This document shows, piece by piece, positions 2,357 to 64,000 of a DNA stretch of 64,000 nt; the stretch's first letter is position 1, and each line of letters starts with the position of its first letter. The translations under genes were made by a program, and so were the position numbers. This DNA is from Planctomycetota bacterium (GTDB lineage Bacteria > Planctomycetota > B15-G4 > SIAN01). The notes under the pieces were generated by a model. The model did not search any database. It had not been told where the DNA came from and saw only the letters and a list, made by a program, of their open reading frames with translations. The stretch is taken from NCBI GenBank assembly GCA_031409275.1, contig JANNXA010000024.1, forward strand, positions 46,763 through 110,762. Direction: 5' to 3'.

Positions 2357-2678
2357 GAGCGCCTAACAGCCCGTTGGAGCACTCCCCGTGTCGCCTGGCG
2401 GCGTCTTTCAAGCCGGTACTTCGTCGGAGTCTCTCGACAACTCACCGGGGAGTTGGCTTCGAACCTCCTCCTCGTCCCGACTCGAAATTCGCTCGGCAGA
2501 CTCGCGGTGACTTCTCCAACGGGCTGCTAACAGAATGTCCGCTGCGTTCGACCGGCTGCGGCCACCCAGGACTTCGTCGACCTCCATCGGCGACTCTTCA
2601 GAGTCGCCTGCTTCGGCCTCCTCGTCCTGCGCGGCCTCGCTCGGTCTCGGCGCGACAAGTCCATTCTGTTAGGCGCTC
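2357..2678. mobile_element. MITE family B copy 1 (158 bp net), interrupted in its left TIR by a family A element
   Basis: TIR GAGCGCCTAACAGAATG / CATTCTGTTAGGCGCTC, flanked by TAA direct repeats (2354-2356, 2679-2681); near-identical uninterrupted copy at 63851. Confidence 0.9.
2367..2526. mobile_element. MITE family A copy 1 (160 bp)
   Basis: TIR CAGCCCGTTGGAG / CTCCAACGGGCTG; CTAA duplication at 2363-2366 and 2527-2530; homologous to copies at 45246, 51270 and 62937 (opposite orientation). Confidence 0.93.
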
Positions 2679-2732
2679 TAAGGAGCGTGGGGCCAGGCGC
2701 GTCAACGTGCCGCGGTCGTGATCAGGACTCGA

Positions 2733-2984
2733 TCACGACTCGTCGTCGAGCGTGAAGCCGATCTTCACCGTGACCTGCCAGTGGGCGATCTTGCCGTCCT
2801 CGAGAGAGCCGCGCGTCTCGGTGATCTGGAACCAGCGCAGGTTCCGCAGCGTCTTCGCAGCACGCATCACGGCGTTGTTCACGGCATCGTCACTCGACTT
2901 GCTCGACGAGCCCACCAGCTCGGCGATCTTGTAGACGTTGGCAGCGCTCTTCTGCGGGTCGTTCTTCTGCTTGCCGTTCTTCAT
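2733..2984 (-). CDS. Dodecin family flavin-binding protein
   Basis: [11 protein letters not shown]...[18 protein letters not shown]...[19 protein letters not shown] upstream of ATG at 2984. Confidence 0.95.
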
Positions 2985-3119
2985 GCGAATCTCCTGGAAT
3001 AGGCGGTCCCGCACGCAGAAATGCGCGCGCGGACGTTCGCACCCTAGCGACCTAGGACGCAGTCCCGCGCTGCCATCGCAGCGTCGATTCACGCGCAGAT
3101 CGCGTGGATCGGCGCTCCC

Positions 3120-5060
3120 TCACTCTTCGCGCGGCGGCACGACGCGACGTCGCTCGCCCGCGACCAGCGTCAATTGCTGGGTCCTCTTGCGGCCATCGTT
3201 GTCGATCCACTCGAGCGTGACGGCGCCGGCCGGCACGAACAACTCGACCTCCGACCGAATGACGTTTTTCTTCGGATCCGCGTAGGCGCTCCCGCACTTC
3301 GCGAGGCAGACGCCCTCCGCGAGGACCCGCACGCCAACGGCGTGGCTGACACCCGGGTTCTCCTCGCCGTCGAGCACGGCATCCGCGACCGGAGAGGGAT
3401 CCACTTCAAGGATCGCCGCCTTGCCGACGCGTGCCGCAATCGTCGAGGTGCCGCGCGCCTGTACGACGAAGCCGCGCACCAGCGCGACCTCGCTCTCGCC
3501 GGCGAAGACGAGGACGTCGTAGGTGCCGGGTTCGAAACCCACTCGCTGAAGCTCGAGTCCGTTCTCGCGCTGCTCGAACCGCTCCGCGCGATCGAGCTGT
3601 GGCACCTGCGAGCCGTCCGGGCGAAAGAAGCGGACCTCGCGAACGGCCCGCTCCGCGCCGGCCTCGTCATGCGCTTGCACCACCACCCGCTGCTGCAGCT
3701 CGACACGGACCACCACCTCGCCGGAGCTGACTCGTGCCTTCACCGGTTCCCGTGTCGCCAGCGATTCGTCGAGCGACGTGCCGGCCAGTGTCAGCACCGT
3801 GCGATTCGTCGCACCCCGAAAGCGGAAGCGCCCCTCCTTGTCGGTGGCGACGCTGGCCATCCACTCGACCGTTCCATCCTTCTCGATGAAACGCGTTCCG
3901 ACCGTCCCAACGACCGGAGCGTCGTCAGGCCCGACCAGCCGGCCAACGATCTCGAGGCCGCGCTCGACCACCAATTCGAGCCACGCGGAGCGCGCCCCTT
4001 CGCGCACTTCGACCCATCCGCTGGCCGGACCATGGCAGGCGCCCGCCGCAGCGCCGCGCTCCTCGGCATCGGCCGCGAAGATCGCGAATCCGCTGGCGAC
4101 GTCGGGCCAGACGAAGCGGCCGTCGCCGTCGGTGACGATCCTGGCCCCCGACCAGCGCATCGCCCCGTAGATCGGCTCGGCTTCGCGCGCGGCGCGATCG
4201 GCAGCGGCGGCCCCGAGTTCGAGCGGCACGCAGCGGTGCCAATCCACCGCCGTGTCGGGAACCGGCACCCCGTTCGAATCGACCACCCTTCCGCTCACGA
4301 GCGGGCCGCCGCGCAGCTTCCAGCGCTTCACGATCCCCTCGCCAGCCGTGAAACGCATCGTCACGACGTCGCAATCGAGCAGCGCAAGCCCTTCGGTCAG
4401 TTCGACCTCGAGTTCGCGGTCGGTCGGCACGTCGGCGATCAACGCCTCGCCTCGCGCGTCGGTGGTCGCTTCCACCACGAAGCGCACCGCGCCGATCCGT
4501 TCGAGCAGCCGCACCGTGACGCCCGACGCGGGGCGGCCATCCGCCTCCAGGACGGTGGCGCGCAGCCGCGCCGGTCGCGTGAGCTGGATCACGAGCGGTT
4601 CGACGTCGGTGCGGCCGAGTTCCTGGCTGGCGACGGCGCGCGGCGCGTAGCCCTCCGCCGCGATCACGAGCCAATCGTCCTCCGCCGCCGCGAGCGCGAA
4701 ACGCCCGTCGTCGTCGCTGCGCCCTTCGACCCGCATCCGCTGCAGCGACCAGACGTCGCGGCGCAGCATCCCGCCGTTGGCGGACGCCGGCCAGCCGATC
4801 GGCGCCTCGGCCAGCGCGATGCCGGTCGCCGCATCCATGACGCGACCGTATCGCTGCGTCGTCACGCGCGTCGCGGTGCGCGCGGCCTCGCTGCTCGCCG
4901 GCGTCGCGACTTCGTCCGGCGCCGCGTCGTACACCGGTGCCTGGCGAACGACCGGTTCGAGCGACGGCCTCTCACGCTGCCACCAGGCGACGAACGCAGC
5001 GATCCCGGCGGCAGTCACCACCACCGTCACGGCGATCGGCAGCAGTCGCACCGCTCGCAT
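3120..5060 (-). CDS. Membrane-anchored carboxypeptidase-regulatory-like (transthyretin-like beta-sandwich) repeat protein
   Basis: N-terminal TM helix; repeated GRVxDxxGxP...T/SDxxGRF modules. Confidence 0.75.
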   Translation of the reverse strand: MRAVRLLPIAVTVVVTAAGIAAFVAWWQRERPSLEPVVRQAPVYDAAPDEVATPASSEAARTATRVTTQRYGRVMDAATGIALAEAPIGWPASANGGMLRRDVWSLQRMRVEGRSDDDGRFALAAAEDDWLVIAAEGYAPRAVASQELGRTDVEPLVIQLTRPARLRATVLEADGRPASGVTVRLLERIGAVRFVVEATTDARGEALIADVPTDRELEVELTEGLALLDCDVVTMRFTAGEGIVKRWKLRGGPLVSGRVVDSNGVPVPDTAVDWHRCVPLELGAAAADRAAREAEPIYGAMRWSGARIVTDGDGRFVWPDVASGFAIFAADAEERGAAAGACHGPASGWVEVREGARSAWLELVVERGLEIVGRLVGPDDAPVVGTVGTRFIEKDGTVEWMASVATDKEGRFRFRGATNRTVLTLAGTSLDESLATREPVKARVSSGEVVVRVELQQRVVVQAHDEAGAERAVREVRFFRPDGSQVPQLDRAERFEQRENGLELQRVGFEPGTYDVLVFAGESEVALVRGFVVQARGTSTIAARVGKAAILEVDPSPVADAVLDGEENPGVSHAVGVRVLAEGVCLAKCGSAYADPKKNVIRSEVELFVPAGAVTLEWIDNDGRKRTQQLTLVAGERRRVVPPREE

Positions 5061-5098
5061 CCTCGCTCCCGTTGCGCCTCGCCCCCGTCGCGCCTCGC

Positions 5099-5881
5099 TC
5101 AGCTCCCGCCATCGCGCAGCGCGCGCGCCGCGGCCGCGACCGTCGCATTGGCGTAGCGCAGGACGAAGTGGCCGTCGCGCCGGTGCTCGGGATCGAGATC
5201 GCAGAGCACGACGTCGTAGCCGCAGTACTGCGCCAGCGCGCGGATCGCCTCAGGCGAGCTCCAATCGAAGCAACCCGTGGTCGGATCGCTGTTGGCCGCC
5301 AGCACGCGCGGCACGTCGCCGACCAGCTTGCGCAGACCGTTGGCGGACGTGCCGTCGGCGAAAGTGCCGATGAACCAGCCCCCCAATTGCAGCACTTCGG
5401 TCGCGCCAAGGAGCAGCGCCGCCAGCTGATGGGCGGTGAGGTGGACCAGCGTGTCGATCGAGAAGAGCGCGTCGACACGACCGCTCCAGCCTTGCTGCGT
5501 CGCTGCGCGACTCACCGCGTTGGCATCGCGCTCATCGATCAGCGCGAGCACCACCCGCCCTTGCGTCACTTCCTTCGCGAAGCGCTGCCGGCAGAGCTTC
5601 TGGAACTGCTCCGAGACGTCGAGCGCCAGCAGCTCGACGGCGGGCGCGGCGGCCAGCACGCGCGCGGTGTACTTGCCCGCCCCCGGCCCGACTTCGATGG
5701 CGTGCTTCCACGTCGCGACGCCGCACGGCTCGAAGAGGCGGCGAAACCACGCCGACCAGAGGCGCTCGTCGCCCCACTCGTCGCCCGGCCAACCACCCGG
5801 CGGCGGCTGCGAGCGCGCCGCGTAGTCATCCCACGCTGCGGCGAACTTGCCATCCGTGGCTGCCATCGCGTCCCTCGTCAC
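5099..5881 (-). CDS. Class I SAM-dependent methyltransferase
   Basis: IEVGPGAG motif I, LDVS, FSIDTLVHL; GTG start overlaps upstream TGA. Confidence 0.85.
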   Translation of the reverse strand: MTRDAMAATDGKFAAAWDDYAARSQPPPGGWPGDEWGDERLWSAWFRRLFEPCGVATWKHAIEVGPGAGKYTARVLAAAPAVELLALDVSEQFQKLCRQRFAKEVTQGRVVLALIDERDANAVSRAATQQGWSGRVDALFSIDTLVHLTAHQLAALLLGATEVLQLGGWFIGTFADGTSANGLRKLVGDVPRVLAANSDPTTGCFDWSSPEAIRALAQYCGYDVVLCDLDPEHRRDGHFVLRYANATVAAAARALRDGGS

Positions 5882-7902
5882 GGCTCATCGATCACCACTT
5901 CCTCGCGGCCACCCGCCACGAGTTCCAGATCGCGCACCACCGTACCCGCGCCGAGGCCTACGCGCAGGCGCACCGGTCCCGCCGGTGCGGTGAAGCGCTG
6001 CGTCGAGCCGAGCGCGAGCTCGCCAGCGGCGATGACCACCGCACCGCTCTGCAATGCGACTTGCGCGAGCGTCACCGGGCCGGCGCGGTAGCGCACCTCG
6101 ACGGTGGCGCCGCGCTGCAACACCACGTCGACCGCACGCGTCTCTCCTTCGGCCAGCGTGACCCCCTCGAGGAAGCCGGCGAAGCCGTCGGTGGTCGTCG
6201 CTCCGAGCGTGAAGTTCCCGGCAGGCAGCCCGTCGAAGCGGTCATCGCTGCTCGGCGTCGCACCGCGACCGCCCGTCCACGCGATCGCGTCGCCGCCTTG
6301 CTGAACCAGCAGGAAGCTCGCGGCAACCGGTTCGCCGCGCCCGTCGAAGCGCGCCACCATCACCAGCGCCGCGGCATCGGCGACCTCGATGCGCAGATCG
6401 CGGCTGCCCGCGCGCGCGTTCAGCGGCGGCGCGGCGGCGTAGCGCAAATCGGACGGCAGGAAGCGCAGCTCGTAGTCGCCTTCGGAGAGCGGCCCGGCGC
6501 GGAAGTTCCCTTCGACGTCGGCGTAGCTCGGGACCTCGCCGGCGATCGCGTTCCCGAGCTCGCGGACGCGCAACGTTCCCGGCACCGGCCCACCGCGCCG
6601 ATCGAGAGCGCGCCCCGTGACGAAGAGGCCGCGCTGCGCCTGCAGTTCCACCTCGCTCGAAACGCTGCCGGCCGGCAACGACAGCGGCTGCGCGAGCGGG
6701 ACGAGATCGCCGCCGGCATGGCCGAGCCCGATCCGTGACCACGCCGCCGGCCCGATCCAGTAGTCGCCCGCCGCCACCGCGCCCCAATCGAAGCGCCCCT
6801 CCTCGTCGGTGAAAGCGCGCGCGACGACGTGCGACTCGTCGCCGGGAGTGAAGAAGGCGCTCTCCGCGTTGCGGTCGAGCTGCGCGCCCTGCGTCGCCAA
6901 CCAGATCAGCACGTCGGCGAGCGGCGCGCCGGTCTCATCGAGGAGACGTCCGCGCAGCTTGATGCCGCCGCCCAGTTGCCACGTGCGCTCGACCGTCGCG
7001 CCCGGTTCCATGCGAAGCGCGGTCGCCTCCACGATCGCCAGCTGGCCCGGCATCGACTCGGGCGGCACCACCGTGAACGAAAGGGCGGAGGAGGCGGGCA
7101 GCCCGGCGATCGTCGCGCGGCCGTCGCGATCGGTGGTGGCGGCCAACACGATCGGGGGCCCGCGCAACACCCCTTCTCCTGACCGATCGGTGCCGCGAAG
7201 GACGACGTCGAACGCGTCGAGCGCGTGCAGCGAGGCCACGACGTCGGCCCCCTCGATCGGCAGCTCACCCGCGCCCAGCACGCGCGCCTGAAGGCGGCAC
7301 TCGACGTCGAGTTCGACTGGCGCCGGCAACGCCGCATCGATCGACAGCTCTTCCGTCGTGACCCAACGCAGTCCGAAGCCGGACGCGCGCACGAAGAGGA
7401 GCCCTGGATCGGACGCCTGCGCCGGCAGCGTGAAACGGCCATCAGCGTCGCTGATCGCCAGCGGTCGCGCCGCCGGAACGAAAAGCAATACAAACGGAAT
7501 GCGCCACGGGTCGCCGCGCGGTTCCTCGCCAACGAGCTCCGCCCCCTCGATCGGCGTGCCGTTCGTGGCGGTGACGCGACCGTGCAGCGGCGGCGACGGC
7601 GGGTTCGCTCTCGGTGGCCAGGCGCTCGCGTCGTGTGGCTCGTCCGGACCTCGTGCTGGCTTGAGGTCGGAAGCCGTTGCTTGCGACGCTTCCGATCGCG
7701 GCGGCGGCACCGCGGAGCGCACCGGCGATGGCAGTGGCGCCGTCGCATCGCTCGCCTCGCGCTCCACTCGACCGTTCTGCACCAGCCGTGGGCCCGCCAA
7801 GCCAAGCCACCACCACGCCGCACCCGCGAGCGCCGCGAAGGCGACGAGGAGCGCCACCGCCGCCGCCAACGCGCGGCCGCTCGTCAAGCCTCGTCGCTGC
7901 AT
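5878..7902 (-). CDS. Membrane-anchored carboxypeptidase-regulatory-like repeat protein
   Basis: N-terminal TM, Pro/Ala linker, repeats GRVTATNGTPI..SDADGRF and GRLLDETGAPL..TDEEGRF. Confidence 0.75.
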   Translation of the reverse strand: MQRRGLTSGRALAAAVALLVAFAALAGAAWWWLGLAGPRLVQNGRVEREASDATAPLPSPVRSAVPPPRSEASQATASDLKPARGPDEPHDASAWPPRANPPSPPLHGRVTATNGTPIEGAELVGEEPRGDPWRIPFVLLFVPAARPLAISDADGRFTLPAQASDPGLLFVRASGFGLRWVTTEELSIDAALPAPVELDVECRLQARVLGAGELPIEGADVVASLHALDAFDVVLRGTDRSGEGVLRGPPIVLAATTDRDGRATIAGLPASSALSFTVVPPESMPGQLAIVEATALRMEPGATVERTWQLGGGIKLRGRLLDETGAPLADVLIWLATQGAQLDRNAESAFFTPGDESHVVARAFTDEEGRFDWGAVAAGDYWIGPAAWSRIGLGHAGGDLVPLAQPLSLPAGSVSSEVELQAQRGLFVTGRALDRRGGPVPGTLRVRELGNAIAGEVPSYADVEGNFRAGPLSEGDYELRFLPSDLRYAAAPPLNARAGSRDLRIEVADAAALVMVARFDGRGEPVAASFLLVQQGGDAIAWTGGRGATPSSDDRFDGLPAGNFTLGATTTDGFAGFLEGVTLAEGETRAVDVVLQRGATVEVRYRAGPVTLAQVALQSGAVVIAAGELALGSTQRFTAPAGPVRLRVGLGAGTVVRDLELVAGGREEVVIDEP

Positions 7903-7973
7903 CGCTTGCCTCCCGTTCGGGCTCGCCAACGTCCCGGCCCGTCGCGCCGCTCGCGCCCTACAATCGCGCCCCC

Positions 7974-8864
7974 ATGAAGATCCGCAAAGCGGTGATCACG
8001 GCGGCCGGTCCCGATCAGCGCGAGCTGCCGCTGCAGCGACTCGTCGATCGCGACGGTTCGGCGAAGTCGGCGCTGCGCCTGCTGCTCGACGAGGCGGCGG
8101 CCGCCGGCATCGGCGAGGTGGCGATCATCGTCCACCCCGACGATGGCGAGCGCTACGCCGCCGCGACGGGGGCGCCAGGCGGGGCGCCGCGCGTCGCCGA
8201 TGGCGTCGAGCCCAAGCTCCACTTCGTGCCACAGGCGGCTGCGCGCGGCTATGCCGATGCGCTGTTGCAGGCGCGCGACTTCGTTGGCGACGAGCCCTTC
8301 CTCCACTTGGTGGGCGACCATCTCTTCCTGCCGCGCGGCGAGTTGCGCCCCGCCGCTGAACTCGTCGCGGTGGCGCAGCGTGAAGGGGCCGCCGTCTCGG
8401 CGGTGCAGTCGACGCGCGAATCGCATCTGCGCGAGTACGGCGTGGTCGGCGGGCCGCGCGTCGCCGGCCGCGAGCGCCTCTTCGCCATCGACGCGGTGCT
8501 GGAGAAGCCGACTCCGACCGAAGCGGAGCAGACGCTCTTCGTGCCGGGACTGCGCGCCGGCCACTACCTCTGCTTCTTCGGGATGCACGTGCTGCCGGCC
8601 GCGATCTTCGACGCCCTCGCACAGGCGCTGCGCGACGCCGCCGAACCGCGCCGCGTCTCGTTGACGCACGCGCTCGCCACCCTGCCGGGCCGCGCGCGCT
8701 GGCTCGCGCTCGAAGTCGCCGCCACCCGCTTCAATCTCGGCGAGAAGTACGGGCTGCTGATCGCGCAGCTCGCGCTGGGACTTTCTGGGCGCGATCGCGA
8801 CGACGTGCTGGCGCAGGTGACGGAACTCCTGCTCGCTCGCGAAAAGGGTCGCGCCCAAAAATGA
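7974..8864 (+). CDS. Sugar-phosphate nucleotidyltransferase family protein (GalU-like, divergent)
   Basis: [12 protein letters not shown] start; [22 protein letters not shown] motifs. Confidence 0.85.
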
Positions 8865-11800: not shown

Positions 11801-12142
11801 ACGCGCGAGCTGCTCCTGCGCAGCGCCGAGCCGGACACCGCCAGCGCCGAAGCGGCCGCTGCCGCGATCGCGACCGCGGTGCGCCGCGTCGCCGCCGAAC
11901 TGCCCACCTACGTCACGCTGAAGGACGTGAAGAAGCGCTGGGGCCAGGCGCAGGAGGATGTCTTCCCCGTCACCCAGTTCGAGAAGTTGTGGAGCGACCT
12001 CACCGCGCTGCCGCAGCTCGACTGCCGCTACGTCGCCGTCCCGCGCGTGCGCGGCCAGCAGTTGAAGGAGCCCGCCCAGCTCGATCCGTGGCTGCGCGAC
12101 GGCAGCGCCGCCGCCATCGCCGCGCGCTGCGACTTCCACTGA
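8861..12142 (+). CDS. Bifunctional GHMP-family sugar kinase / UDP-sugar pyrophosphorylase fusion
   Basis: N-half: [30 protein letters not shown] (GHMP/fucokinase-like). C-half: [35 protein letters not shown] (UDPGP-like). ATGA overlap with upstream gene. Confidence 0.8.
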
Positions 12143-12170
12143 CCGCGACGACGCGGCTCGCCCGGTCCGC

Positions 12171-14144
<1,974 letters not shown>

Positions 14145-14286
14145 GAACGGATCTCGACCGGCCCGACCAAGCCGCGCGCCGCGCAACAGGAGCAAAGGCG
14201 CGGCCGTCGCGATCGCGGCGGCCGAGAAACTGCGGGGTCAGGACCAGCGCGCTGAAGAGTAGCGCTGTCAGGGCCGGCGAGGCGGC

Positions 14287-37440: not shown

Positions 37441-37601
37441 GTGTCCTGATCCCGAAGTGCGCATCACCATTCGGGGCGCCCTTCGCGCATGGCTTCGTCG
37501 GACCTCCTCATCGACTTCCCGCGAAGTCGATGTCGTCGGCCCTCCTTGCCGTGCACGAAGCTCGCCTCCGACTGCTCTCCCGAACTTCGGAATCAGGACA
37601 C
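37441..37601. mobile_element. MITE family C (161 bp)
   Basis: TIR GTGTCCTGATCCCGAAGTGCG / CGAACTTCGGAATCAGGACAC (19 of 21 match); TA on the left, CA on the right; same internal core as families A and B; single copy in the window. Confidence 0.75.
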
Positions 37602-45245: not shown

Positions 45246-45405
45246 CAGCCCGTTGGAGAAGTCACCGCGAGTCCGGCGAGCGGATTTCGAGTCGGGACGA
45301 GGAGGAGGTTCGAAGCCAATTCCCCGGTGAGTTGTCGAGAACGTCCGACGAAGTACCGGCTTGAAAGACGCCGCCGGGCGACACGGGGAGTTGTCCAACG
45401 GGCTG
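45246..45405. mobile_element. MITE family A copy 2 (160 bp)
   Basis: TIRs CAGCCCGTTGGA / TCCAACGGGCTG; GTAG duplication (45242-45245, 45406-45409) that includes the CBS gene stop codon. Confidence 0.93.
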
Positions 45406-46761: not shown

Positions 46762-48120
46762 ATGCCCCATCACCGCAAGCTCGCCCGTGCCGTCGCCTGG
46801 CTTTGTTGGATTGCGCCGCTCGCCTGCGGCGAGTTGCATGCGCAAGCGAAGCTCTCGCTTCCGCGCGCCAAGGTCGCGGAGATCGAGAAGCTCGCCGATG
46901 CGTGGTTCGCCGCGCGGCCGCCATCGCGGTTCGTCGAGTGGGATGGGCCGACGCGCGCCACTCTCGAAACGCAGGCGCGCGCCATCGGCGAGGTCGGCGA
47001 GGGCGATCTTGCGCCGCTCGTCGAGCTGCTGTGGAAAGCGGCGCGCAATCACGCGCCCGACTGGAAGAAGGGCGAGCTGCCGACGCCGTACGGTCCGGCG
47101 ACCTACCTCGAGAAGGGCAAGGGCGGCCGCAAACAGGGCTTCGCACTGGCGCTGCACGGTGGCGGCGAAGGAGCCGGCGATGCCGCGGAAGCGGCCGGCA
47201 ATTGGAACCCGCCGGGTTGCGTCATCGCGGCACCGCAGGGCATCCGCCTCGTGCACGACACCTGGAACACCGTGCATGGCGAGCGCTTCGCGCTCTCGCT
47301 GATCGAGTGGGCGAAGTGGCATCACGACGTCGACCCCGATCGCGTCTACACCATGGGCTTCAGCATGGGCGGCACCGGCTCGTTCTTCCTCGCCGGCCGC
47401 CATCCCGACCTCTTCGCGGGCGCGATTCCTGCGCACGGTGTGCTGATGGCGGAACCGAAGAGCCAGGTCGCGACGAAGGAGGAGGTCGTGCAGGTGCAGC
47501 ACGGGCTGCTGCCCAACCTCCGTAACCTCGCGATGTACTGGTACACCGGAAGCGTCGACCAGAACTGCAAGCCCGGCACCTACCTCTTCGCGTGGGATCG
47601 CCTGCTCGAACTGAAAGCGGCCGATCCGGGCGGCTACGCGAAGCTCTCCTTCTACTGCCAGCCGAACCTCGCCCACTCCTTCCCGACGGGCGAGCCGCAG
47701 AAGGGTTTCGACGTCGTCCTGAAGGAGCGCCGCGACACCTTCCCGACGAAAGTGGTTTGGGAGCACGCGAGCAGTCCCTTCCCGCAACCCGACGACGACG
47801 AGCCGTTGCCACGCTTCGTCCCGACCTGGCACTACTGGCTGCACTGCCTCGCGCCGCAGGATCGGATGCGCGTCGTCGCCGAGCGCCACGGCAACACGTT
47901 CGAAGTGAAGACGAGAGGCGTGGCCGCCGACCAACTCGAACTGCTGCTCCAGCCCGCGCTCTACGATCCGAAGCAGCCGCTGGTGGTGACCGTCGACGGG
48001 CGCAAGGTGGTCGACGGCGTCGTGCTGCCCGACTTCTGGACCGTGCTCGAGACGCTCGACGCACGCATGGACCGGACGCTCGTCTTCGACCGCCGCGTGC
48101 GCCTGTCGGCGTCGCGCTGA
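46762..48120 (+). CDS. Secreted alpha/beta hydrolase, paralog of the divergent neighbour
   Basis: Signal peptide; LHGGG, GFSMGG, SVDQ, AHSF. Confidence 0.85.
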   Translation: MPHHRKLARAVAWLCWIAPLACGELHAQAKLSLPRAKVAEIEKLADAWFAARPPSRFVEWDGPTRATLETQARAIGEVGEGDLAPLVELLWKAARNHAPDWKKGELPTPYGPATYLEKGKGGRKQGFALALHGGGEGAGDAAEAAGNWNPPGCVIAAPQGIRLVHDTWNTVHGERFALSLIEWAKWHHDVDPDRVYTMGFSMGGTGSFFLAGRHPDLFAGAIPAHGVLMAEPKSQVATKEEVVQVQHGLLPNLRNLAMYWYTGSVDQNCKPGTYLFAWDRLLELKAADPGGYAKLSFYCQPNLAHSFPTGEPQKGFDVVLKERRDTFPTKVVWEHASSPFPQPDDDEPLPRFVPTWHYWLHCLAPQDRMRVVAERHGNTFEVKTRGVAADQLELLLQPALYDPKQPLVVTVDGRKVVDGVVLPDFWTVLETLDARMDRTLVFDRRVRLSASR

Positions 48121-51004: not shown

Positions 51005-51495
51005 TCATCGCGAATTCACCCGCCTCCGGATTGCTCGCCCATTCCGGACGGCCACCAGAAGCCAGCACGAGCCAGTCGGCGGGATCTCCCTCTTCGCTTC
51101 GGAGGCCGGCGTCGCCTCCCAGCGCACCTCGCCTCGCGCCATCCGCTCGGCCCAGCGCATCAGGTCACCCAGATGCGACAGCAGCTCCATCGGCGTCCTC
51201 GTGGTCGGTGCCGCGCGCACCGTCCCGAAGGGCGCCGGAAAGTCGCGCAACACCTTGCCCGCGCGATAGCAGCCCGTTGGAGAAGTCACCGCGAGTCCGG
51301 CGAGCGGATCTCGAGTCGGGACGAGGAGGAGGTTCGAAGCCAACTCCCCAGTGAGTTGTCGAGAGCCTCCGACGAAGTACCGGCTTGAAAGACGCCGCCG
51401 GGCGACACGGGGAGTTCTCCAACGGGCTGATAGGCGAGCGTCGCCAACGTGTGGCGCAACTGCAGTCGTGGGTCATGTGCCGTCATCGGGAACAT
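51005..51495 (-). pseudogene. DinB-like conserved hypothetical gene interrupted by MITE A
   Basis: Removing 51270-51429 and one TSD restores LRHTLATLAY-RAGKVLRDF...RTPMELLSHLGDLMRW in frame; the 3' part looks truncated. Confidence 0.75.
51270..51429. mobile_element. MITE family A copy 3 (160 bp)
   Basis: Perfect 15-bp TIR CAGCCCGTTGGAGAA; ATAG duplication (51266-51269, 51430-51433). Confidence 0.95.
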
Positions 51496-51539
51496 CGCCT
51501 CCATCACGCGGTCAAAGCGCGCCAGCACTCGCCGCATCA

Positions 51540-51857
51540 TCAACCGTCGGCGCGCAGCACCTCGACGATTGGCGAGCATGCCACGGCCAACGTCAGCGGC
51601 AGATCGCCGGGCTGCGGATCGTCGCGGTAGCGCAGCGCCGCCGCCAACAGTCCGTCAGCGCCGGCTTCGAACTCGGCCAGCTCCTCGGCGGGGAGAATGA
51701 CCTCTGCGCTGCCCGACGCGCCGACCACGCCGGCGAAGTCGGCTCGCTGCAGCGAGGCGAGGGGATGTTGGCGCAGGACGAGGAGGGGAATCGCGGCTCC
51801 GACGAGGCGGGTCTGCTGACCCGCTGAGGAAGGAACGCGGTTTTCCGACGATGTCAT
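51540..51857 (-). CDS. Hypothetical protein
   Basis: 105-aa ORF with plausible composition; no recognised motif. Confidence 0.35.
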   Translation of the reverse strand: MTSSENRVPSSAGQQTRLVGAAIPLLVLRQHPLASLQRADFAGVVGASGSAEVILPAEELAEFEAGADGLLAAALRYRDDPQPGDLPLTLAVACSPIVEVLRADG

Positions 51858-52011
51858 GCGTCGACCGACCGAGCCGCAGCAGGGACTCGTGAATGAGGCG
51901 GGCTAGTGTCGTGATCCGATCGGCGCCGATCGCGGGCGCGAACGTCGACCCGATCAGCCCCAGCAGCGCGCGGCGGCCCCAGATCGTGCGGCGGGGATCA
52001 GCGCGCGCGGT

Positions 52012-53682: not shown

Positions 53683-53708
53683 CGTTTCGTCGCGTCCGCG
53701 CGGCGCTC

Positions 53709-54230: not shown

Positions 54231-54246
54231 GAGCAACTCCTTCGTT

Positions 54247-55533: not shown

Positions 55534-55555
55534 GCTCCACGACCGTTCGCCGCCG

Positions 55556-56506: not shown

Positions 56507-56548
56507 CGTGCCGAACCATCCATCCGGAAAGCCGTATCCTCCGATCTC

Positions 56549-56567
56549 CCATCAGCTTCACGGATGG
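56549..56567. promoter_or_regulatory. Putative LysR binding site
   Basis: CCATC-N9-GATGG dyad (T-N11-A) in the 87-bp gap between divergent yeiH-like and LysR genes. Confidence 0.55.
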
Positions 56568-56593
56568 AGCTTCCGCCGCGAGGGTCGCCTGCC

Positions 56594-57493
56594 ATGCGCC
56601 AGCCGCTCGATGCCGATCTGCTCGCCACCTTCCTCTCCGTCGTCGAGCACGGCCGCATCTCCGCAGCGGCGCGCGCGATCCATCTCTCGCAGCCCGCCGT
56701 CACCGCCCGCATCCGCCGCCTCGAACACTCGGTGGGTGCGCCGCTGCTGGTCCGCTCGGTCCGCGGCGTCGAGCCGACCGCAGCCGGCCAGCGCCTGGCC
56801 GCGCGCGCGCGCGAAGTGCAGCGACTGCTCGAAGCGGCGCTCGACGACTTCGGCGACGAAGAGCACGCGCTCGGAGCGTTGTCGCTGGCGGTCAGCACCA
56901 CCATCGCCGCCCATGTGCTGCCGAGCGTCCTGGCCCGTTTCCGCGCGCGTCACGCCGACGTCCCCGTGACGCTGGAGGTCGCCAACACCGAGGAGGTGGT
57001 CGAAGCCGTGCGCGCCGGCCGCCAGCCGCTCGGCCTGGTCGAAGGGACGGCGCGCGCCGCCGGCGTGCGGCTCGAGAAGTGGCTCGACGACGAGCTGGTG
57101 CCAGTGATGGCCGCCGACGCGCCGTTCCTAGTGCGCCGCGATGCCGATCTGCTGGCGACCCCGATCCTGTGGCGAGAGCCGGGCTCGGGGACGCGCGCCG
57201 TCATCGCCGCCGCGCTGCGCAAGGCGGGCGTTCGGCAGCGGCCGGCGCCGCTCGATCCGGTGCTTGGCACCAGCAGCGCCATCGCCAGTGCCGCCGCCGC
57301 AGGGCTCGGCGTCGCGTTCCTTTCGCGGTGGGCGCTGACGCCCTACCTCGTCACCGGCCGGCTGCGCACCATTCCCGGTCTCTCGTTCACGATCCGCCGC
57401 ACGTTCCAGTGGGCGCTCCCGGCAGGAGCGCTGACCGGCAGCGCTGCGCGCTTCCACCAGCTCGCCACGCAACACCCGCCGGTCCCGACCTGA
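56594..57493 (+). CDS. LysR family regulator (YeiE/CysL-like)
   Basis: HTH ISAAARAIHLSQPAVT; STTIA, NTEEV, GLVEG, REPGSGTR. Confidence 0.93.
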   Translation: MRQPLDADLLATFLSVVEHGRISAAARAIHLSQPAVTARIRRLEHSVGAPLLVRSVRGVEPTAAGQRLAARAREVQRLLEAALDDFGDEEHALGALSLAVSTTIAAHVLPSVLARFRARHADVPVTLEVANTEEVVEAVRAGRQPLGLVEGTARAAGVRLEKWLDDELVPVMAADAPFLVRRDADLLATPILWREPGSGTRAVIAAALRKAGVRQRPAPLDPVLGTSSAIASAAAAGLGVAFLSRWALTPYLVTGRLRTIPGLSFTIRRTFQWALPAGALTGSAARFHQLATQHPPVPT

Positions 57494-57538
57494 GCCGCGC
57501 AGCGCCGCGTTGCAGCGAGAAGCGCCGCGACTCGCGCG

Positions 57539-58291
57539 TCATTTCCGGCCGGTCTTCGTGCAGCCGACCATCACTTGCCCGCTTCCCAGCAACGCGCTGT
57601 CGCCGTTGGTGGCATCGAGCAGCTGCCGCTCGCGGCGCCGCTTGCCGCCGAGCCAGGTGAAGCCGCGGATCAGCAGGAGCCACGGCGCGAAGCAGAGGCG
57701 CTGATGCCAGGCGTAGAGACGCTTGTGACGCAGCACGAAGTGCTCGCAGCCTTCCCAGAAGAGGACCGTCTTCAGGATCGGGAACGGGATGGCGTTGATG
57801 TGGGGCGCGTAGCCGCGCAGGTAGAAGGCGCGATCCTCGCGGCTGTCGATCTTCAAGCGCTGGAAGTTGCCGGTCAGCAGGTAGCGCAGGCGGTACTTCA
57901 GGTTCCAGTAGTTGGGGATCGTGAGGTAGAGGTGGCCGCCCTTCTTCAGGACGCGGACCAGGTCGCGCAGCACCAGGAACGGCGCGCGCAGGTGTTCGAG
58001 CACATCGGTCGAGACCACCACGTCGAACTCGGCGTCCGCGAATGGCAGGCGCGGGTCGTCGAGGTGGTGGACGACGGCGCAGATGCGCGCGTCGGCCGGC
58101 CGCGCTTCGAGATCGAGCACGGTCACCTTGGCGCCCGCCTCCGCGAGCTGCGCCGAGAGCCAGCCGGTCCCGGCGCCGACGTCGAGCACGCTCTTGCCGC
58201 GCAGATCGCCGAGCGCGCCGATCTCCTTCAGCACGACCTGCTGGATCGAGCCTTCCGGCTTGAGCGCGACGCGGTTCTGCGTGCCGTCCAC
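57539..58291 (-). CDS. Class I SAM-dependent methyltransferase
   Basis: VLDVGAGTG, LPFADAEFDVV, VLEHL, RVLKKGG, TIPN. Confidence 0.88.
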   Translation of the reverse strand: MDGTQNRVALKPEGSIQQVVLKEIGALGDLRGKSVLDVGAGTGWLSAQLAEAGAKVTVLDLEARPADARICAVVHHLDDPRLPFADAEFDVVVSTDVLEHLRAPFLVLRDLVRVLKKGGHLYLTIPNYWNLKYRLRYLLTGNFQRLKIDSREDRAFYLRGYAPHINAIPFPILKTVLFWEGCEHFVLRHKRLYAWHQRLCFAPWLLLIRGFTWLGGKRRRERQLLDATNGDSALLGSGQVMVGCTKTGRK

Positions 58292-58292
58292 T

Positions 58293-60290
58293 TCATTCCT
58301 CCCGCGGCTCGCACGCTCGCCACATCTTGGGCGGCGCTTCGCCGCGCATCTCGTACAGGAAACGCGAGGGCATCGACTCGCCCCGATGGCCACCGCGTGC
58401 GCGGCTCTTCACGCAACTCACGGTGAGGTGGCGCTGCGCGCGCGTGATGCCGACGTACATGAGTCGACGCTCCTCCTCGACCGTCTTCTCGCCCACCGCG
58501 CGAATGTGAGGCAGCAGCCCCTCCTCGACGCCCACGAGATAGACGCGCGTGAACTCAAGCCCCTTGGCGGAATGGAGCGTCATCAACGTGACCTGATCGC
58601 GGGCGCTCTCCTTCTCCTCCTCGTCGTCGGTGTCCGACATGACCAGCGCTTCGAGGAAGCTCGAAAGCGTCGGGGCTCCGACCCGGCGCACGTGGTTCTC
58701 CGCGAAGTTCACCAGCTCGAGCACGCCTTGCCAGCGCTCTTCGCGCGTCGCCGCGTCCGGGTAGGCGCGATCCACCTCGGCCCGATAGTCGAACTCGGCC
58801 AGCACCCGGCGAATCCACGCCACGAGGTCGCGCCCCGGATCGGCGCTGCCGAGCGCCGCCACCTTGCGCAGGAACGCCTGCATCGACTCGACCGCGGGTG
58901 GCGGCAGGCCGACGATCGCGTTCGCCTCGCGGAACGCGCGCGCGACCGGGATGCCCTCGGCCGTCGCGTAGGCCAGCGCCTTGTCGATGGTGACCTTCCC
59001 GATGCCGCGCGGCGGGCAGTTGATGATGCGCAGCAGCGAGACCTCGTCGTCGGGGTTCGCCGCGAGGCGCAGGTACGCGAGCACGTCGCGCACTTCCTTG
59101 CGATCGAAGAACGACATGCCACCGACCAGGCGATAGGGCACCTGCTTGGCGCGCAACGCCGCTTCGAACGCGCGCGCCTGCGTCGCCGCGCGGAACAACA
59201 CCGCGAAGTCCTTCGGTCGCGCCCGCCCCTCGCGCATCAGGTCGGTGATCTCGCGCACGGCGAAGTCCGCCTCCGCCGTCTCGTCCTCGACGCGCTTCAC
59301 GACGACCGGTTCGCCCGGCCCCAGCGCCGAGCGCAGCGTCTTGCCGTGGCGTGCCGGGTTGCAGGCGATGACGCGGTTCGCCGCCTCGAGGATCGGCTCG
59401 ACGGAGCGGTAGTTGGTCTCGAGTCGGACCACCGCCGCGCCCTCGAAGTCGCGTTCGAAGCCGAGGATCTTCTTCACGTCGGCGCCGCGCCACCCGTAGA
59501 TCGACTGGTCGTCATCGCCGACCACGCAGAGGTTGCGATGGCCGCCCGCGATCAGCCGCAGCAGCTCGTACTGCGGCGCGTTGGTGTCCTGGTACTCGTC
59601 GACCATCACGTAGCGGTAGCGGGTCGCAAGCGCTTCCTTGTCCACCGAGCTCTCGCGCAGCAGCCGCACCGCGAAGAGCAGCAGGTCGTCGAAATCGACG
59701 CTGCGCGCGCGGCGCAGGTGCTCGTCGTACTTCGCGTACGCCTTGGCGATCAGCAGCTCGTGGCGATCCTGCGCCTGGCGGTGCGCCTCGATCGGCGTCA
59801 CCAGCCGGCTCTTCATCAGCGAGATCTTCGACTGAAGCACGTTGGGCGCGATCTTCGTCTCGGCGATGCGCAGCTCGCGCAGGGCCCCCTTCAGCGCGGA
59901 GAGCTGGTCGGCGCTGTCGCAAATGGCGAAGCGGCCGGGCAGCCCGATGGCGTGGCCGCGCTCGCGCAGCAGGCGCACGCAGAAGGCGTGGAACGTGCCG
60001 ATCGTGACCGCCTTCGCCCGCTCGCCGCCGACGACGCCGGCGACCCGCTCGCGCATCTCGTTGGCGGCGCGATTGGTGAACGTCATCGCCAGCAGCTGCT
60101 CGGGCGCGACGCCGTGCGCCAGCAGCCACGCGATGCGCACGGTGATGACGCGCGTCTTGCCGGAACCGGCGCCGGCCAGCACCAGCAGCGGCCCCTCGGT
60201 GGTGGTGACTGCCGCCCGTTGCTCGGGGTTCAAGCCGGACAGCAACGCGTCGCGAGAGGCGGTGGTGGAGGCGGCGGCGGAACGGGCCAT
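58293..60290 (-). CDS. UvrD/Rep/PcrA family SF1 helicase
   Basis: LAGAGSGKT, TFTNRAA, VDEYQD, GDDDQSIY, NYRS, TLHSAKGLEF, EERRLMYVGITRA. Confidence 0.96.
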   Translation of the reverse strand: MARSAAASTTASRDALLSGLNPEQRAAVTTTEGPLLVLAGAGSGKTRVITVRIAWLLAHGVAPEQLLAMTFTNRAANEMRERVAGVVGGERAKAVTIGTFHAFCVRLLRERGHAIGLPGRFAICDSADQLSALKGALRELRIAETKIAPNVLQSKISLMKSRLVTPIEAHRQAQDRHELLIAKAYAKYDEHLRRARSVDFDDLLLFAVRLLRESSVDKEALATRYRYVMVDEYQDTNAPQYELLRLIAGGHRNLCVVGDDDQSIYGWRGADVKKILGFERDFEGAAVVRLETNYRSVEPILEAANRVIACNPARHGKTLRSALGPGEPVVVKRVEDETAEADFAVREITDLMREGRARPKDFAVLFRAATQARAFEAALRAKQVPYRLVGGMSFFDRKEVRDVLAYLRLAANPDDEVSLLRIINCPPRGIGKVTIDKALAYATAEGIPVARAFREANAIVGLPPPAVESMQAFLRKVAALGSADPGRDLVAWIRRVLAEFDYRAEVDRAYPDAATREERWQGVLELVNFAENHVRRVGAPTLSSFLEALVMSDTDDEEEKESARDQVTLMTLHSAKGLEFTRVYLVGVEEGLLPHIRAVGEKTVEEERRLMYVGITRAQRHLTVSCVKSRARGGHRGESMPSRFLYEMRGEAPPKMWRACEPREE

Positions 60291-60412
60291 CGAGGATCCT
60301 GCGCGGCGCGGACAGGTCGGGATGAAGCGGGGCGCTCTTACTTGGCGCCGGCGACGGGCGCAATCGGGCAGGGATATGCTCCCGCCGACTCGAATCGCCT
60401 GGAGGATCTTCG

Positions 60413-61900
60413 ATGCTGCGTGCCGCCTTCGCTGCCCTCTCCATGACACTGCTCGCTTCGGCGCCCGATCCGATGCGCGACGATGCGCCGATCGCGCCGG
60501 TCAGCTCCATCGTCGAGCTCGTTCCGGAGCCGAGCGCCACCGCCACCGAAGCAGCGTTCGGGTGGCTCAAGTTCATGGCTGCGGGCTACCGCAACAGCGC
60601 CGATCTGCTGGGGCAGGGCAGCGCCGCCGACGCGGAGCTCGTCGTCGGCGAGGCGATCGAGAAGGCGGTGCGACCGCTGCTCGACGCGCAGGTCGGCAAG
60701 AAGGGCAAGGTCAAGTTGAACGACGCCGCCGACGGACCGATCACGAAGGTCGACGACAGCGGCGTCAGCGTCACCGTCAACAAGACCGAGACGTTGGTCG
60801 CGTGGGCTGACCTCGACCCCAAGCAGATCGGGCTGCTGCTCAGCAAGGGCAAGCCGACCGCGGAGGCCGACATCGTGGCCGCCGCGGCGCTGAAGCTGCT
60901 GGGCAACGACGGGGCCGACGCCAAGCAGCGCGCGGCGAAGCTCACGGGCGAGGTCGGCAAGAAACTCGGCGAGCTGCTGGCCGATTTCAAGGAGGTCGGC
61001 CCCGAGCTGAAGGCGGCGCGCGCGCTCGACGCGGCTCTGCGGGATGGCGATGCGGGCAAGGCCGTCGAGCGCATGAAGGCGGCGTGGCCCGAGGCGAAGG
61101 CGACCAAGCTCGGCGAGGACGTGAAAACGGCGCTGCGCGAGCAGTTCGTGCAGCGTGGTGAGTCGGCGTTCCGCGGACCGCAGGCGCTCTCCGCCGCGAT
61201 CCACGGCAAGGTCACGACCAACCCCTCGAAGCTCCATCCCGACGCCGGCGAGGGCGGCATGGGGATCGCCATCGAGTACGACTTCGAGAAGAACCTGGAA
61301 GGCGGCGACTTCGACCCGGCCACGCTGCCGAAGTCCGCCCTGCAGATGGTGAAGTCGAGCGACGGGCGCGCCGTCAGCAGCGTCAACGCGCTTCAGGTCG
61401 CGCAGAGCCGATTGCTGCCCAACGACGTTTCGGGTGGCGCGTTGCCCATCGAGTTCTGCGCCGATGTCGAGGTCGAGCTGCAGGGTGGCTTCGCCGAGAC
61501 CTGGCGTGGCGAACCGGTTGGTTTCTATCTCTTCGGCCTCACGACCGCCGATGGCAGCGATCGCATCGTGCTCAACAACTTCTGCGTGCTGGAGAGCGTC
61601 GTCGGCGGCAAGAACGGCGCGTCCTCCGAGAAGAAGATCGAGAAGCCCAACCCTGGCGTCCAGGTCTTCACCCAGTTCTCGATGGCCGGCGGAAAGATGG
61701 TGATGAAGCTGAACGGTGACCCGACGCCACAGCTCAACTTCGCGCCGAGCGGCCCGCTTCGCCCGTTCCTGATGGCGGGAGGCCCGCCCACCTGGTTCCT
61801 CGAGCGCTTCGTCATCAAAGGCACGGCCACCGGGGCGAGCCTCGGCATGTTGGCGCGCCTGGTCGCCGCGCGCGAGGCGAAGGCGCTGTTTGGTGAGTGA
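60413..61900 (+). CDS. Secreted hypothetical protein
   Basis: Signal peptide; strong codon bias; helical N-half and beta-rich C-half. Confidence 0.7.
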   Translation: MLRAAFAALSMTLLASAPDPMRDDAPIAPVSSIVELVPEPSATATEAAFGWLKFMAAGYRNSADLLGQGSAADAELVVGEAIEKAVRPLLDAQVGKKGKVKLNDAADGPITKVDDSGVSVTVNKTETLVAWADLDPKQIGLLLSKGKPTAEADIVAAAALKLLGNDGADAKQRAAKLTGEVGKKLGELLADFKEVGPELKAARALDAALRDGDAGKAVERMKAAWPEAKATKLGEDVKTALREQFVQRGESAFRGPQALSAAIHGKVTTNPSKLHPDAGEGGMGIAIEYDFEKNLEGGDFDPATLPKSALQMVKSSDGRAVSSVNALQVAQSRLLPNDVSGGALPIEFCADVEVELQGGFAETWRGEPVGFYLFGLTTADGSDRIVLNNFCVLESVVGGKNGASSEKKIEKPNPGVQVFTQFSMAGGKMVMKLNGDPTPQLNFAPSGPLRPFLMAGGPPTWFLERFVIKGTATGASLGMLARLVAAREAKALFGE

Positions 61901-62303
61901 TCCTCGCGACGCGAAGGCCGCGGGGAACGACGCCATCGCCACGTCGAAGGTCGATGTCGCCGCGAAGCTCGCGCTGATCCACGAGCACTGGCGGCCGAAA
62001 GTGGTCGCCGAGCTGAACGGCCAGGAAGTGAAGCTCGCCAAGTTCCAGGGCGACTTCGTGTGGCATCGCCACGAACATGAAGATGAGCTCTTCCTCGGCG
62101 TCGCCGGCTCCTTCCGCGTGGAGTTCCGCGACCGGATCGAGACGATCCACCCCGGCCAGCTCATCGTCGTGCCGCGCGGCGTCGAGCACCGCACGGTCGC
62201 CGACGCCGAAGCGGCCGCGCTGATCTTCGAGCCCGCCGCGACGCGCAACACCGGCGATGTCGTCGACACGCGCCTCACCGCACCCAACGGCGTGAAGCTC
62301 TGA
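61893..62303 (+). CDS. Cupin domain protein
   Basis: HWRPKVV, FVWHRHEHEDELF, VPRGVEH, FEPAATRNTG. Confidence 0.92.
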   Translation: MSDPRDAKAAGNDAIATSKVDVAAKLALIHEHWRPKVVAELNGQEVKLAKFQGDFVWHRHEHEDELFLGVAGSFRVEFRDRIETIHPGQLIVVPRGVEHRTVADAEAAALIFEPAATRNTGDVVDTRLTAPNGVKL

Positions 62304-62325
62304 GCGACCGCGCGCGCCGTTGCCG

Positions 62326-62538
62326 CTACGCCTTCACCTTCACGTACTCGCCGAGCGAGACCGGCTTCGGAGCGGGAGTGCCATCTTCCTCGAGTCCATC
62401 GAGGTGCATACGGATCGCCGTCGCGAGGCGCTTCTTGGTCAGCTCGGCCGTCTTGCCGGTGGCGATGCAGCCCGGCAGGTCAGGCACGTAGCCCGACCAG
62501 TTGCGCTCCGCCGGCTCGATCACGACGAGGTACTTCAT
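62326..62538 (-). CDS. hicB: HicB family antitoxin (short form)
   Basis: YLVVIE..YVPDLPGCIATGKT...HLDGL..G.P.P. Confidence 0.9.
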   Translation of the reverse strand: MKYLVVIEPAERNWSGYVPDLPGCIATGKTAELTKKRLATAIRMHLDGLEEDGTPAPKPVSLGEYVKVKA

Positions 62539-62780
62539 CGAGGCTCTCCCTCCTCCGTTCCTGCCGTCGCTCCTGGATCCTTCGGATCGCGCGCCGGCAC
62601 GAGGCCGGCCTGGCGCAGCGCGCTTCTCTCGGTCTTCGGGCACAGATGCTCCTTGCGATGGCCCGCCACCGTGACTCGCCCCGGCTTCCACGGGTGGCGA
62701 AACTGCCGATGGCTCCCACGTTGACCCGAGAGGAACCAACCATCATCGAGAAGTCTTCGAATTAGCTCGTGCACCGTCAT
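62535..62780 (-). CDS. hicA: HicA family mRNA interferase toxin
   Basis: DGW...RGSHRQFRHP.KPGRVTV...RQAGL; 4-nt overlap with hicB. Confidence 0.9.
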   Translation of the reverse strand: MTVHELIRRLLDDGWFLSGQRGSHRQFRHPWKPGRVTVAGHRKEHLCPKTERSALRQAGLVPARDPKDPGATAGTEEGEPR

Positions 62781-62936
62781 CGCGCCACCCCCCGAGCGAC
62801 GTCGATGAACGCGCCACTCGATCTGCCGCCGACGCCGCGCGAAGGACGTCGCTCGCCGTGGAGGGTGACAGCGACGTGAGGAGCGGCACAAATGGCCGCG
62901 ACGGCAGCGAGCACGCCCGACGCTGCGCTCGCGCTA

Positions 62937-63085
62937 GAGAAGTCACCGCGAGTCCGGCGAGCGAATTTCGAGTCGGGACGAGGAGAAGGTTCGAAGCCAA
63001 TTCCCTAGTGAGGTGTCGAGAGCCGACGACGACGCGCTGGCTTGGAAGACGCCTCCAGGCGACACGGGACTTCTCCAATGGGCTG
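62937..63085. mobile_element. MITE family A copy 4 (degenerate, left TIR tip missing)
   Basis: Aligns to copies 2 and 3 from GAGAAGTCACCGCGAG to CTCCAATGGGCTG, followed by ATAG; many substitutions. Confidence 0.85.
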
Positions 63086-63100
63086 ATAGATTCCGCCGCC

Positions 63101-63382
63101 ATGAGCGACGAGATCGACCCGATCGCCGATCCCTATGCCTCGCTGCAGGCGCGGCTCGCCGAGCAGGTGGTGTGGCCTTCGGTCTACACCTTCAAGTTCA
63201 TCATGAAGACCGAGCTCGTCGGCGAGTTCAGCCTGATCCTGGCCGGTCACGCCTTCACCACCCGAGCATCGGGGGCCGGGCGCCACACTTCGATCACGGC
63301 CGAGCTCTTCATGGAATCGAGCGAAGAGGTGATCGCGCTCTATCGCCGCGCCGCGGAGTTTCCCGGCGTGATCTCGCTGTAG
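63101..63382 (+). CDS. DUF493 family protein
   Basis: WPSVYTFKFI, SGAGRHTSIT, PGVISL. Confidence 0.85.
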   Translation: MSDEIDPIADPYASLQARLAEQVVWPSVYTFKFIMKTELVGEFSLILAGHAFTTRASGAGRHTSITAELFMESSEEVIALYRRAAEFPGVISL

Positions 63383-63514
63383 TCAGCGGGCGCGACGACG
63401 CTCTTCAGCGCGACGCCGGTGACGCCGATCGCCTTGCCACCCGTCTCATCCCAGCGCACGCCGCACGCGTGGCGCACGAAGCCGACATGCAGCTCGCCTG
63501 GATTGCCGGCGTCG

Positions 63515-63811
63515 CTACTTCCAGCGCGTCATGCCGTCGGCGCGACCGTCCTCGCGGTCGATCTGCTCCATCGTCTGCGCGAACTCGGCGGACGTGCACA
63601 GCCCCTTCTGCACGGCAAGGCGCTGCACGGTCTTGACCGCCAACGCGAGTTCGCCGATGGCGCGTTCGAGATCGGCCGAGCCGCCCCCCACCGCGCCACC
63701 GCCCGCGCCACTCAGCGCGAAAGCGTCCGCTCGCGCCGAACTCGCCTGTCGATGGAGGTCCTCGATGCGCGACTGCTGATAGAGGTCGAACACCCAGTTG
63801 ATCAAGCCCAT
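63515..63811 (-). CDS. Hypothetical protein
   Basis: RBS AGGAG; 98 aa ending IDREDGRADG. Confidence 0.65.
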   Translation of the reverse strand: MGLINWVFDLYQQSRIEDLHRQASSARADAFALSGAGGGAVGGGSADLERAIGELALAVKTVQRLAVQKGLCTSAEFAQTMEQIDREDGRADGMTRWK

Positions 63812-63850
63812 GCAATCTCTCCTGATCGCGGCGTCAGAAGCGCCGCCTTA

Positions 63851-64000
63851 GAGCGCCTAACAGAATGTCCGCTGCGTTCGACCGGCTGCGGCCACCCATG
63901 ACTTCGTCGACCTCCATCGGCGACTCTTCAGAGTCGCCTGCTTCGGTCTCCTCGCCCTGGGCGGCCTCGCTCGGTCTCGGCGCGACGCGTCCATTCTGTT
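63851..64000. mobile_element. MITE family B copy 2 (last 8 bp of the right TIR lie beyond the window)
   Basis: TTA then GAGCGCCTAACAGAATG...CATTCTGTT; near-identical to 2357-2678 without the nested insertion. Confidence 0.9.

Follow-up and report, generated by a model that had tools for sequence, protein, structure and literature searches.

The 64,000-nucleotide stretch considered here, called the window below, spans positions 46,763 to 110,762 of contig JANNXA010000024.1 in a Planctomycetota genome assembly (GCA_031409275.1, here G000; 5.59 Mb, 69% GC, 55 contigs). Scattered along it are short transposable elements of the miniature inverted-repeat kind (MITEs), whose terminal inverted repeats (TIRs) are of several unrelated types and whose interiors share a structured core. 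An earlier note on this stretch had described three such families, A, B and C, and its motif positions, offsets and element lengths (160, 158 and 161 bp) all agree with a direct check of the coordinates. The letters TTCGTC lie at 2420, 2573, 37494 and 63903; the left ends of A, C and B are at 2367, 37441 and 63851, and the offsets from them are 53, 53 and 52 nt. The distance to the next TCCTY (2469, 2619, 37543) is 43, 40 and 43 nt. The pattern TTCGTC-N36-46-TCCTY has nine matches in the window against 0.74 expected, and none of 100 shuffled sequences reached nine. These matches represent seven distinct TTCGTC sites, six of them within the elements. Each of the three window elements folds end to end on its purine-rich strand (z-scores of -5.9, -10.1 and -6.7). 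Beyond those already listed, the window holds three more A copies and one remnant of a further family, E (table 1). No tRNA or tmRNA was found in it.

Table 1. MITEs and structured cores in the window. The strand given is the purine-rich folding strand.
Feature	Coordinates	Strand	Remarks
Family B MITE	2357..2678	-	IS5-type ends GAGCGCCTAACAGAA; interrupted by A copy
Family A MITE, 160 bp	2367..2526	-	IS1182-like ends; sits in left TIR of B
Structured core of A	2395..2498	-	model R1, 104 bits
Structured core of nested B copy	2548..2646	-	76.7 bits
Family C MITE, 161 bp	37441..37601	-	IS630-type ends; core 37469-37572
Family A copy	45246..45405	+	GTAG duplication; adjoins stop codon
Family A copy	51270..51429	+	ATAG duplication
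Family E remnant	51752..51903	+	IS1380-type right end, without left TIR; 30.9 bits, E held out of model
Degenerate family A copy	62927..63085	+	61.8 bits
Family B copy	63851..64000	-	core 63878-63976; 8 nt short, cut by contig end

The first two elements form a nested pair. The interrupted B copy is flanked by TAA at 2354-2356 and 2679-2681, and the A copy within it duplicated CTAA (2363-2366 and 2527-2530). In the core of this A copy, the outer module consists of TTCGTC at 2420-2425 with TCCTC at 2469-2473 on the forward strand, and the apical stem pairs 2438-2443 with 2450-2455. Convergent genes flank the pair, one for a sugar ABC substrate-binding protein (929-2305) and one for dodecin (2733-2984). 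The C copy has co-directional genes on both sides; the TA flank claimed for it is present on the left, whereas the right flank reads CA. A C-like end fragment (51904-51922) stands directly after the E remnant, following TAG.

Within G000, BLAST returns 33 matches to A, 26 to B, 7 to C, 8 to D, a sister of C, and 22 to E; small further families (F, G and H) were obtained by BLAST and de novo repeat finding. Element length is 158-164 bp, the exceptions being E (176-177 bp) and a subfamily of A, 5 of the 31 copies aligned, in which 15 nt are inserted. The 4-bp duplication reported for A is exact in 17 of 29 copies and varies in sequence. For B the reported TAA is seen, but the rule is TNA, exact in 9 of 16 full copies. 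TA stands on both sides in three of six D copies and in none of four C copies, all four being imperfect; most C and D copies have TA on at least one side. By dicodon gene calls made for this analysis, 83 of 91 copies are intergenic, three overlap a gene end and five lie at contig edges. MITE read depth is 30-65 times that of the flanks (sequencing run X1), and no empty insertion site was seen in the sequencing runs searched. By every feature tested (short, non-coding, multi-copy, TIRs, duplications and ends matching insertion sequences (IS)), these elements are MITEs.

The cores of A-D are related to one another. Sixteen of them align nearly without gaps, and global alignments between families reach z of 2.6-4.7 on the same strand against at most 2.5 when one sequence is reversed. 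The central hairpins had been described as different in sequence; their stems have indeed diverged, but the apical stems of A-D have CRACT...AGTYG in common. Judged by these alignments, the A-D interiors are homologous and form one diverged lineage, which argues for homology with exchange of ends and not for convergence. A single diverged lineage, which the earlier note had weighed against its own reading, thus holds for the interiors and not for the ends, which are unrelated and appear to have been exchanged.

The core is predicted to fold on its purine-rich strand alone, giving a rod-like hairpin that contains tandem G·A pairs. Its outer module on this strand reads 5'-C-GA-G-GA-G opposite 5'-C-GA-C-GAA-G, and the invariant letters of the strand are the unpaired ones. 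C-F carry an inner copy of the module in reverse orientation; A and B are without the inner GAGGAG. Pairing is retained while stem sequences differ, as had been claimed: 94% of 384 cells are paired against 31-44% in slid controls, in a structure derived from those same sequences, and double changes affect 16 of 24 pairs. On 92 model-aligned matches, 22 of 24 pairs show double changes.

The core extends far beyond this genome. Model R1, built on A-D, finds 94 sites in G000 and recovers both E and F, which had been held out; R2 denotes a second core model. Of 150 further genomes from the phylum, each represented by only 26 scored candidates, 21 contain R1 matches. As the earlier note had anticipated, the core recurs elsewhere with further TIR types: 16 of 27 same-phylum loci, from 10 genomes, are 158-174-bp elements with such ends (L056 stands outside this survey). 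An exact pattern scan of a species-level genome set gave at least 124 loci from 5 of 64 parts, or about 1800 stretches estimated overall. R1 matches 90 of 100 loci selected by this pattern, and about 15 phylum-level groups are represented. Carriers include Planctomycetota, Myxococcota, Gemmatimonadota, Acidobacteriota, Bdellovibrionota, Clostridia, Patescibacteria groups, Omnitrophota, Bacteroidota, Rhodothermales, Pseudomonadota, Campylobacterales, Zixibacteria, Eisenbacteria, Schekmanbacteria and Actinobacteria. Records of Duganella rivi and Massilia terrae are among those with the module. Viral contigs held one locus and none for two core patterns. Among 49 elements with a TIR score of at least 12 and a length of 150-175 bp, 29 end clusters were distinguished.

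Removal of five duplicates and three tandem repeats from the 124 left 116 loci. At two outer-loop positions left free by the pattern these read GC/AA in 74, GA/GA in 37 and a mixed form in five; only two of the 116 show GC/GA, the mixed form that would add a Watson-Crick pair. In the middle 5-bp stem, pairing is wholly canonical at 47 loci, and tandem GA is present at 35. It is canonical or tandem-GA in 84 of 116 against a shuffled mean of 24, and the pattern did not require pairing here. G·T mismatches outnumber A·C (123 versus 51). Of the two strands the purine-rich one folds more stably at 114 of 116 loci under DNA parameters and at 113 under RNA parameters. The 5'-GC/AA form is a known sheared DNA motif. 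Tandem GA in a CGAG context, especially CGAG opposite CGAG, is described as a stable sheared DNA motif (PMC10085684, PMC8163305). Two other readings of the loop letters were rejected. Recognition of GAGGA by CsrA or as a Shine-Dalgarno sequence fits poorly with GGC in place of GGA in 76 of 116 outer loops and with the lack of an inner GAGGAG in A and B. The 3-nt bulge of a kink-turn is absent. A further repeat family in G000 (C50:228150-228370 and C27:75790-76090) consists of core-like units in direct tandem and is matched by R2.

By sequence comparison, this one core is carried on ends that match four IS families: IS1182-like (A), IS5 (B), IS630 (C and D) and IS1380 (E). The termini of A, B and C had been called unrelated, and their matches to different IS families bear this out; the search for IS with matching TIRs suggested in the earlier note yielded partners for each, the IS5 partner of B from metagenomes only. 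A complete IS1380 with E-type ends is present in G000 (NF033539, 384 bits). IS630 fragments with C/D-type ends lie at five contig breaks, and in their C-terminal 45 aa they match IS630 transposases from plasmids (the annotation of 5 among the 10 matches listed); the IS630 family search of G000 gave nothing over the cut-off, the element being collapsed at contig breaks. In G000 the A-type ends occur on a truncated element, and relatives have complete ones about 1.5 kb long; that IS1182 is their best family at only 169-210 bits, below the 270 cut-off, tells against a firm assignment. In the truncated element (L012, G000:C55:16787-18132) the IS1182-like transposase gene lacks its start and overlaps a frame resembling the IS1380 C-terminus; a comparison of its right end with plasmids gave no match. 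Among 123 metagenome loci, 11 hold elements of 852-903 bp bounded by B-type ends; most of these contain IS5-like frames, and the one scanned (L271) is IS5 (NF033580, 151 bits). No IS5 partner of B was identified in G000 or in 42 genomes of the order.

The TIR of IS5 and of IS630 extends over the final transposase codons, so these end letters come from the IS. The interior, by contrast, does not appear to derive from the parent IS bodies searched. R2 finds no core within IS1380, IS1182-like or IS5 bodies among 22 loci, which include no full IS630, and its only matches there are two neighbouring MITEs; an origin by internal deletion of these IS is accordingly not borne out by the sequences. Around positions 12-16 from the end, AGAA is present in the TIRs of A, B and D and in those of the IS1182-like, IS5 and IS630 partners; this may be chance, or a small homology easing end exchange. 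A 1204-bp metagenome stretch (L254/L255) with B-type ends and a TAA flank holds a 289-aa open reading frame that by eye resembles an alpha/beta hydrolase, a possible gene capture by B-type ends.

Core and ends were compared in 62 elements (1891 pairs). Family F, with GAG ends like B, and L067/L168, with A-type ends, have cores 91% identical and ends unrelated; the cores of C and G are 88% identical. A and L067/L168/L171 have a common end type and cores only 50-57% identical. In these comparisons core and ends assort independently, as expected of the element that swaps its termini envisaged earlier. One of the 94 G000 copies is a B/A chimera (C47:3890-4066): its left arm is of type B, its right arm of type A, and the junction lies in a motif of 11 nt common to both. 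At G000:C7:46460-46489, a B copy is joined, through a GGGCGCC overlap, to about 30 nt of a C-type end, a putative second intermediate of end exchange. B-type ends also carry other interiors: 1 of 20 short metagenome elements matches this core pattern and several carry ERIC-like variants. A 119-bp MITE family with B-type ends has an unrelated interior (L237, L243, L298, L308, L315, L339). The two arms also change together. Of 65 double changes in A, B and E, where 21 doubles would be expected, 42 bring back a Watson-Crick pair; 19 of the 27 compensatory events are confined to a single copy. The claim of one conserved structured module on several transposase end types is thus upheld by covariation and by matches to four IS families; the structure and its modular evolution are well supported.

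That the element was not a named family also stands. Rfam 15 gives no match at gathering score in the window (the best, at the nested site, has E 5.3), and 18 diverse loci give only sub-threshold miRNA-type and PhotoRC-I matches. Two known repeats of the integron and REP kind were considered and set aside. Integron attC letters (RYYYAAC...GTTRRRY) occur only in B, inside an IS5 TIR with TNA duplication. The sole Y1_Tnp gene of G000 (C27:25162-25488) lies about 20 kb from the nearest copy (C27:45090), which speaks against REP or REPIN with RAYT. Like the present core, REP/RAYT, IS200/IS605 ends and integron attC sites are imperfect palindromes whose two strands fold differently, and they are handled by HUH or tyrosine enzymes. 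The ends and duplications here are, in contrast, of DDE type. Four-copy repeats resembling attC sites lie at G000:C2:1502-1595.

For comparison, 13 repeats of E. coli K-12 were used, which we take to be ERIC. ERIC, or IRU, of Enterobacteriaceae (127 bp; PMC2229807, PMC3184786) resembles the core in being an end-to-end rod whose purine-rich strand is the more stable. The outer loop CAAGGCG...CAACGCCG of the copy that matches best lines up in register with the module's GC/AA form, and close to the apex each of the 11 copies folded has a tandem GA. ERIC is nevertheless shorter (about 127 bp versus 158-177 bp), has other ends (TA termini, found here only in C and D) and a longer inner segment, and is without the double GA-C-GA/GA-G-GA module. 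Identity with ERIC was rejected: R1 finds none of the copies, and R2 none genome-wide. With filters off, three of the 13 copies score 9-15 bits with R2, in the right place and strand and aligning the outer GC/AA loop. In direct alignments the mean z is at most 1.5. RUP (IS630-Spn1), Nezha (ISNpu3), P. fluorescens R0/R2 and Correia/NEMIS elements are also non-coding, 100-200 bp long, with IS-matching TIRs, target duplication, a hairpin and insertion into other elements (PMC2229807, PMC3184786). In the accounts available each is one family per IS, whereas in G000 a single homologous core is combined with ends of four IS types. The CIR1-4 repeats of Caulobacter and Brucella, compared here by their published description (PMC2229807), likewise keep structure between taxa, and their two-arm plan resembles the two-core elements of genome G186. 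CIR have two independent arms and exposed GANTC, and A-E are single rods with IS-type TIRs; membership was rejected on the single end-to-end rod and on GANTC, which is in the apex of B and not in that of C or D. In the accessible literature no description was found of a core common to several end types, and the MITE lists of PMC11602168 may contain these elements.

The explanation preferred here, at a probability of about 0.42, is that the shared, covarying interior acts as folded single-stranded DNA (ssDNA), lining up the ends, keeping them matched and taking on new ones. The proposed course is as follows. (i) Each family would be moved in trans by a transposase acting through that family's own ends. 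(ii) In DNA opened by a fork or transcription bubble, the purine-rich strand would fold end to end, sheared G·A replacing Watson-Crick pairs, while the other strand, with pyrimidine mismatches, would fold worse. The result would be a stable single-strand rod without a full cruciform, sparing the cost of a perfect 160-bp palindrome. (iii) In the rod one arm would template the other, so that a newly captured IS end could be copied to the opposite side; this would explain the private compensatory changes. (iv) Mutual insertion into ends and recombination at the common motif would yield new end/core pairs. (v) A candidate protein of the host, or a helper, probably reads the fixed G·A loops, which would be lost if templated repair acted alone.

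An RNA role comes close behind this ssDNA role, which is favoured only narrowly. If the purine-rich rod were co-transcribed, and a host protein bound its G·A loops or these loops blunted RNase III, insertions near genes, often at stop codons, would be tolerated or would tune mRNA decay, as has been reported of ERIC and Correia elements. G·U is tolerated; 24 of 70 A-D copies adjoin a called stop codon, and convergent gaps hold 20 of 83 intergenic copies as against 332 of 2396 gaps. The ERIC outer loop, matching in register, and the RNA effects of ERIC (PMC2229807, PMC10969869) point the same way. Abutment on stop codons, however, also follows from TAG/TAA/TGA target sites. Orientation to transcription shows no bias (15 sense, 23 antisense, p 0.26), nor do convergent gaps (9 versus 11 by strand), and 25 of the 83 copies lie in divergent gaps. 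Loops are GNRA in 1 of 112 and UNCG in none. About a dozen elements like G186:C1:2069380-2069690 (L373), of some 310 bp and with A-like ends, contain two inverted cores and one purine-rich hairpin per strand. The lack of transcription bias and of an RNA tetraloop preference, with one core per strand in these two-core elements, tips the choice towards DNA.

It is improbable, though worth weighing, that the core has no function and is left over from a single old MITE, its palindrome kept by arm-to-arm template switching and its ends swapped by nesting and recombination. The homologous interiors, private compensatory changes, chimera and nesting all fit, as do B-type ends with other interiors. 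Template switching, however, perfects palindromes, yet the mismatches persist across phyla and covary as GA/GA or GC/AA; the scarcity of GC/GA and the excess of G·T over A·C on one strand likewise tell against a relic. A double-stranded site for a bending protein (IHF- or HU-like), helping ends 160 bp apart to meet, is very unlikely and the least likely of the three options in the earlier note, since mismatched positions about 45 nt apart covary. Its precedent is the 155-bp Correia element (PMC2229807), and the fixed motif-end offset would suit it: 50-59 nt in 48 of 49 full-length elements, whose lengths are 152-172 bp within a filter window of 150-175. Long-range pairing, strand asymmetry and mismatch covariation would be left unexplained, and the motif halves are spaced variably, from 40 nt (B) to over 52 nt (E).

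Several observations weigh against the ssDNA role. DDE transposases act on double-stranded ends, so a link from fold to transposition is not obvious. Replication-fork bias is not consistent in G000 and G187: 53 versus 35 copies point toward the G-poor strand in G000, and in G187 a hand count gives 27 versus 13 by chromosome halves, with a noisy skew pointing the opposite way. The strand asymmetry is larger with RNA than with DNA parameters (-8.1 versus -2.75 kcal/mol). Inside a family, conservation of the motif exceeds that of the stems only slightly (0.98/0.94/0.96 versus 0.95/0.94/0.95). The 116 loci were chosen by a pattern fixing most loop letters and include relatives, so their counts overstate independence. 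Private compensatory changes could also reflect selection on sub-lineages, and none of the 23 contig pieces listed, of 44, bridges the chimera junction with 31 letters on both sides. Finally, ERIC shows orientation-dependent RNA effects (PMC2229807).

In the accessible reviews, bacterial MITEs are traced mainly to IS decay or internal deletion (PMC10969869, PMC3184786). In the present elements it is the interior that is conserved, and the ends can be exchanged among four transposase families. A wider and doubtful extension would make the core a pan-bacterial, selfish lineage of sheared-G·A rods, recognized by a conserved protein of the host or a helper, capturing any DDE IS ends and copying them to both arms. 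ERIC would then be a distant member, and MITEs across many phyla would descend from the core and not from their IS. The covarying mismatches define precise test mutations (GA/GA, GC/AA, mixed and fully paired), as well as a bait for the candidate binding partner. The core could thereby link ERIC to a much larger family.

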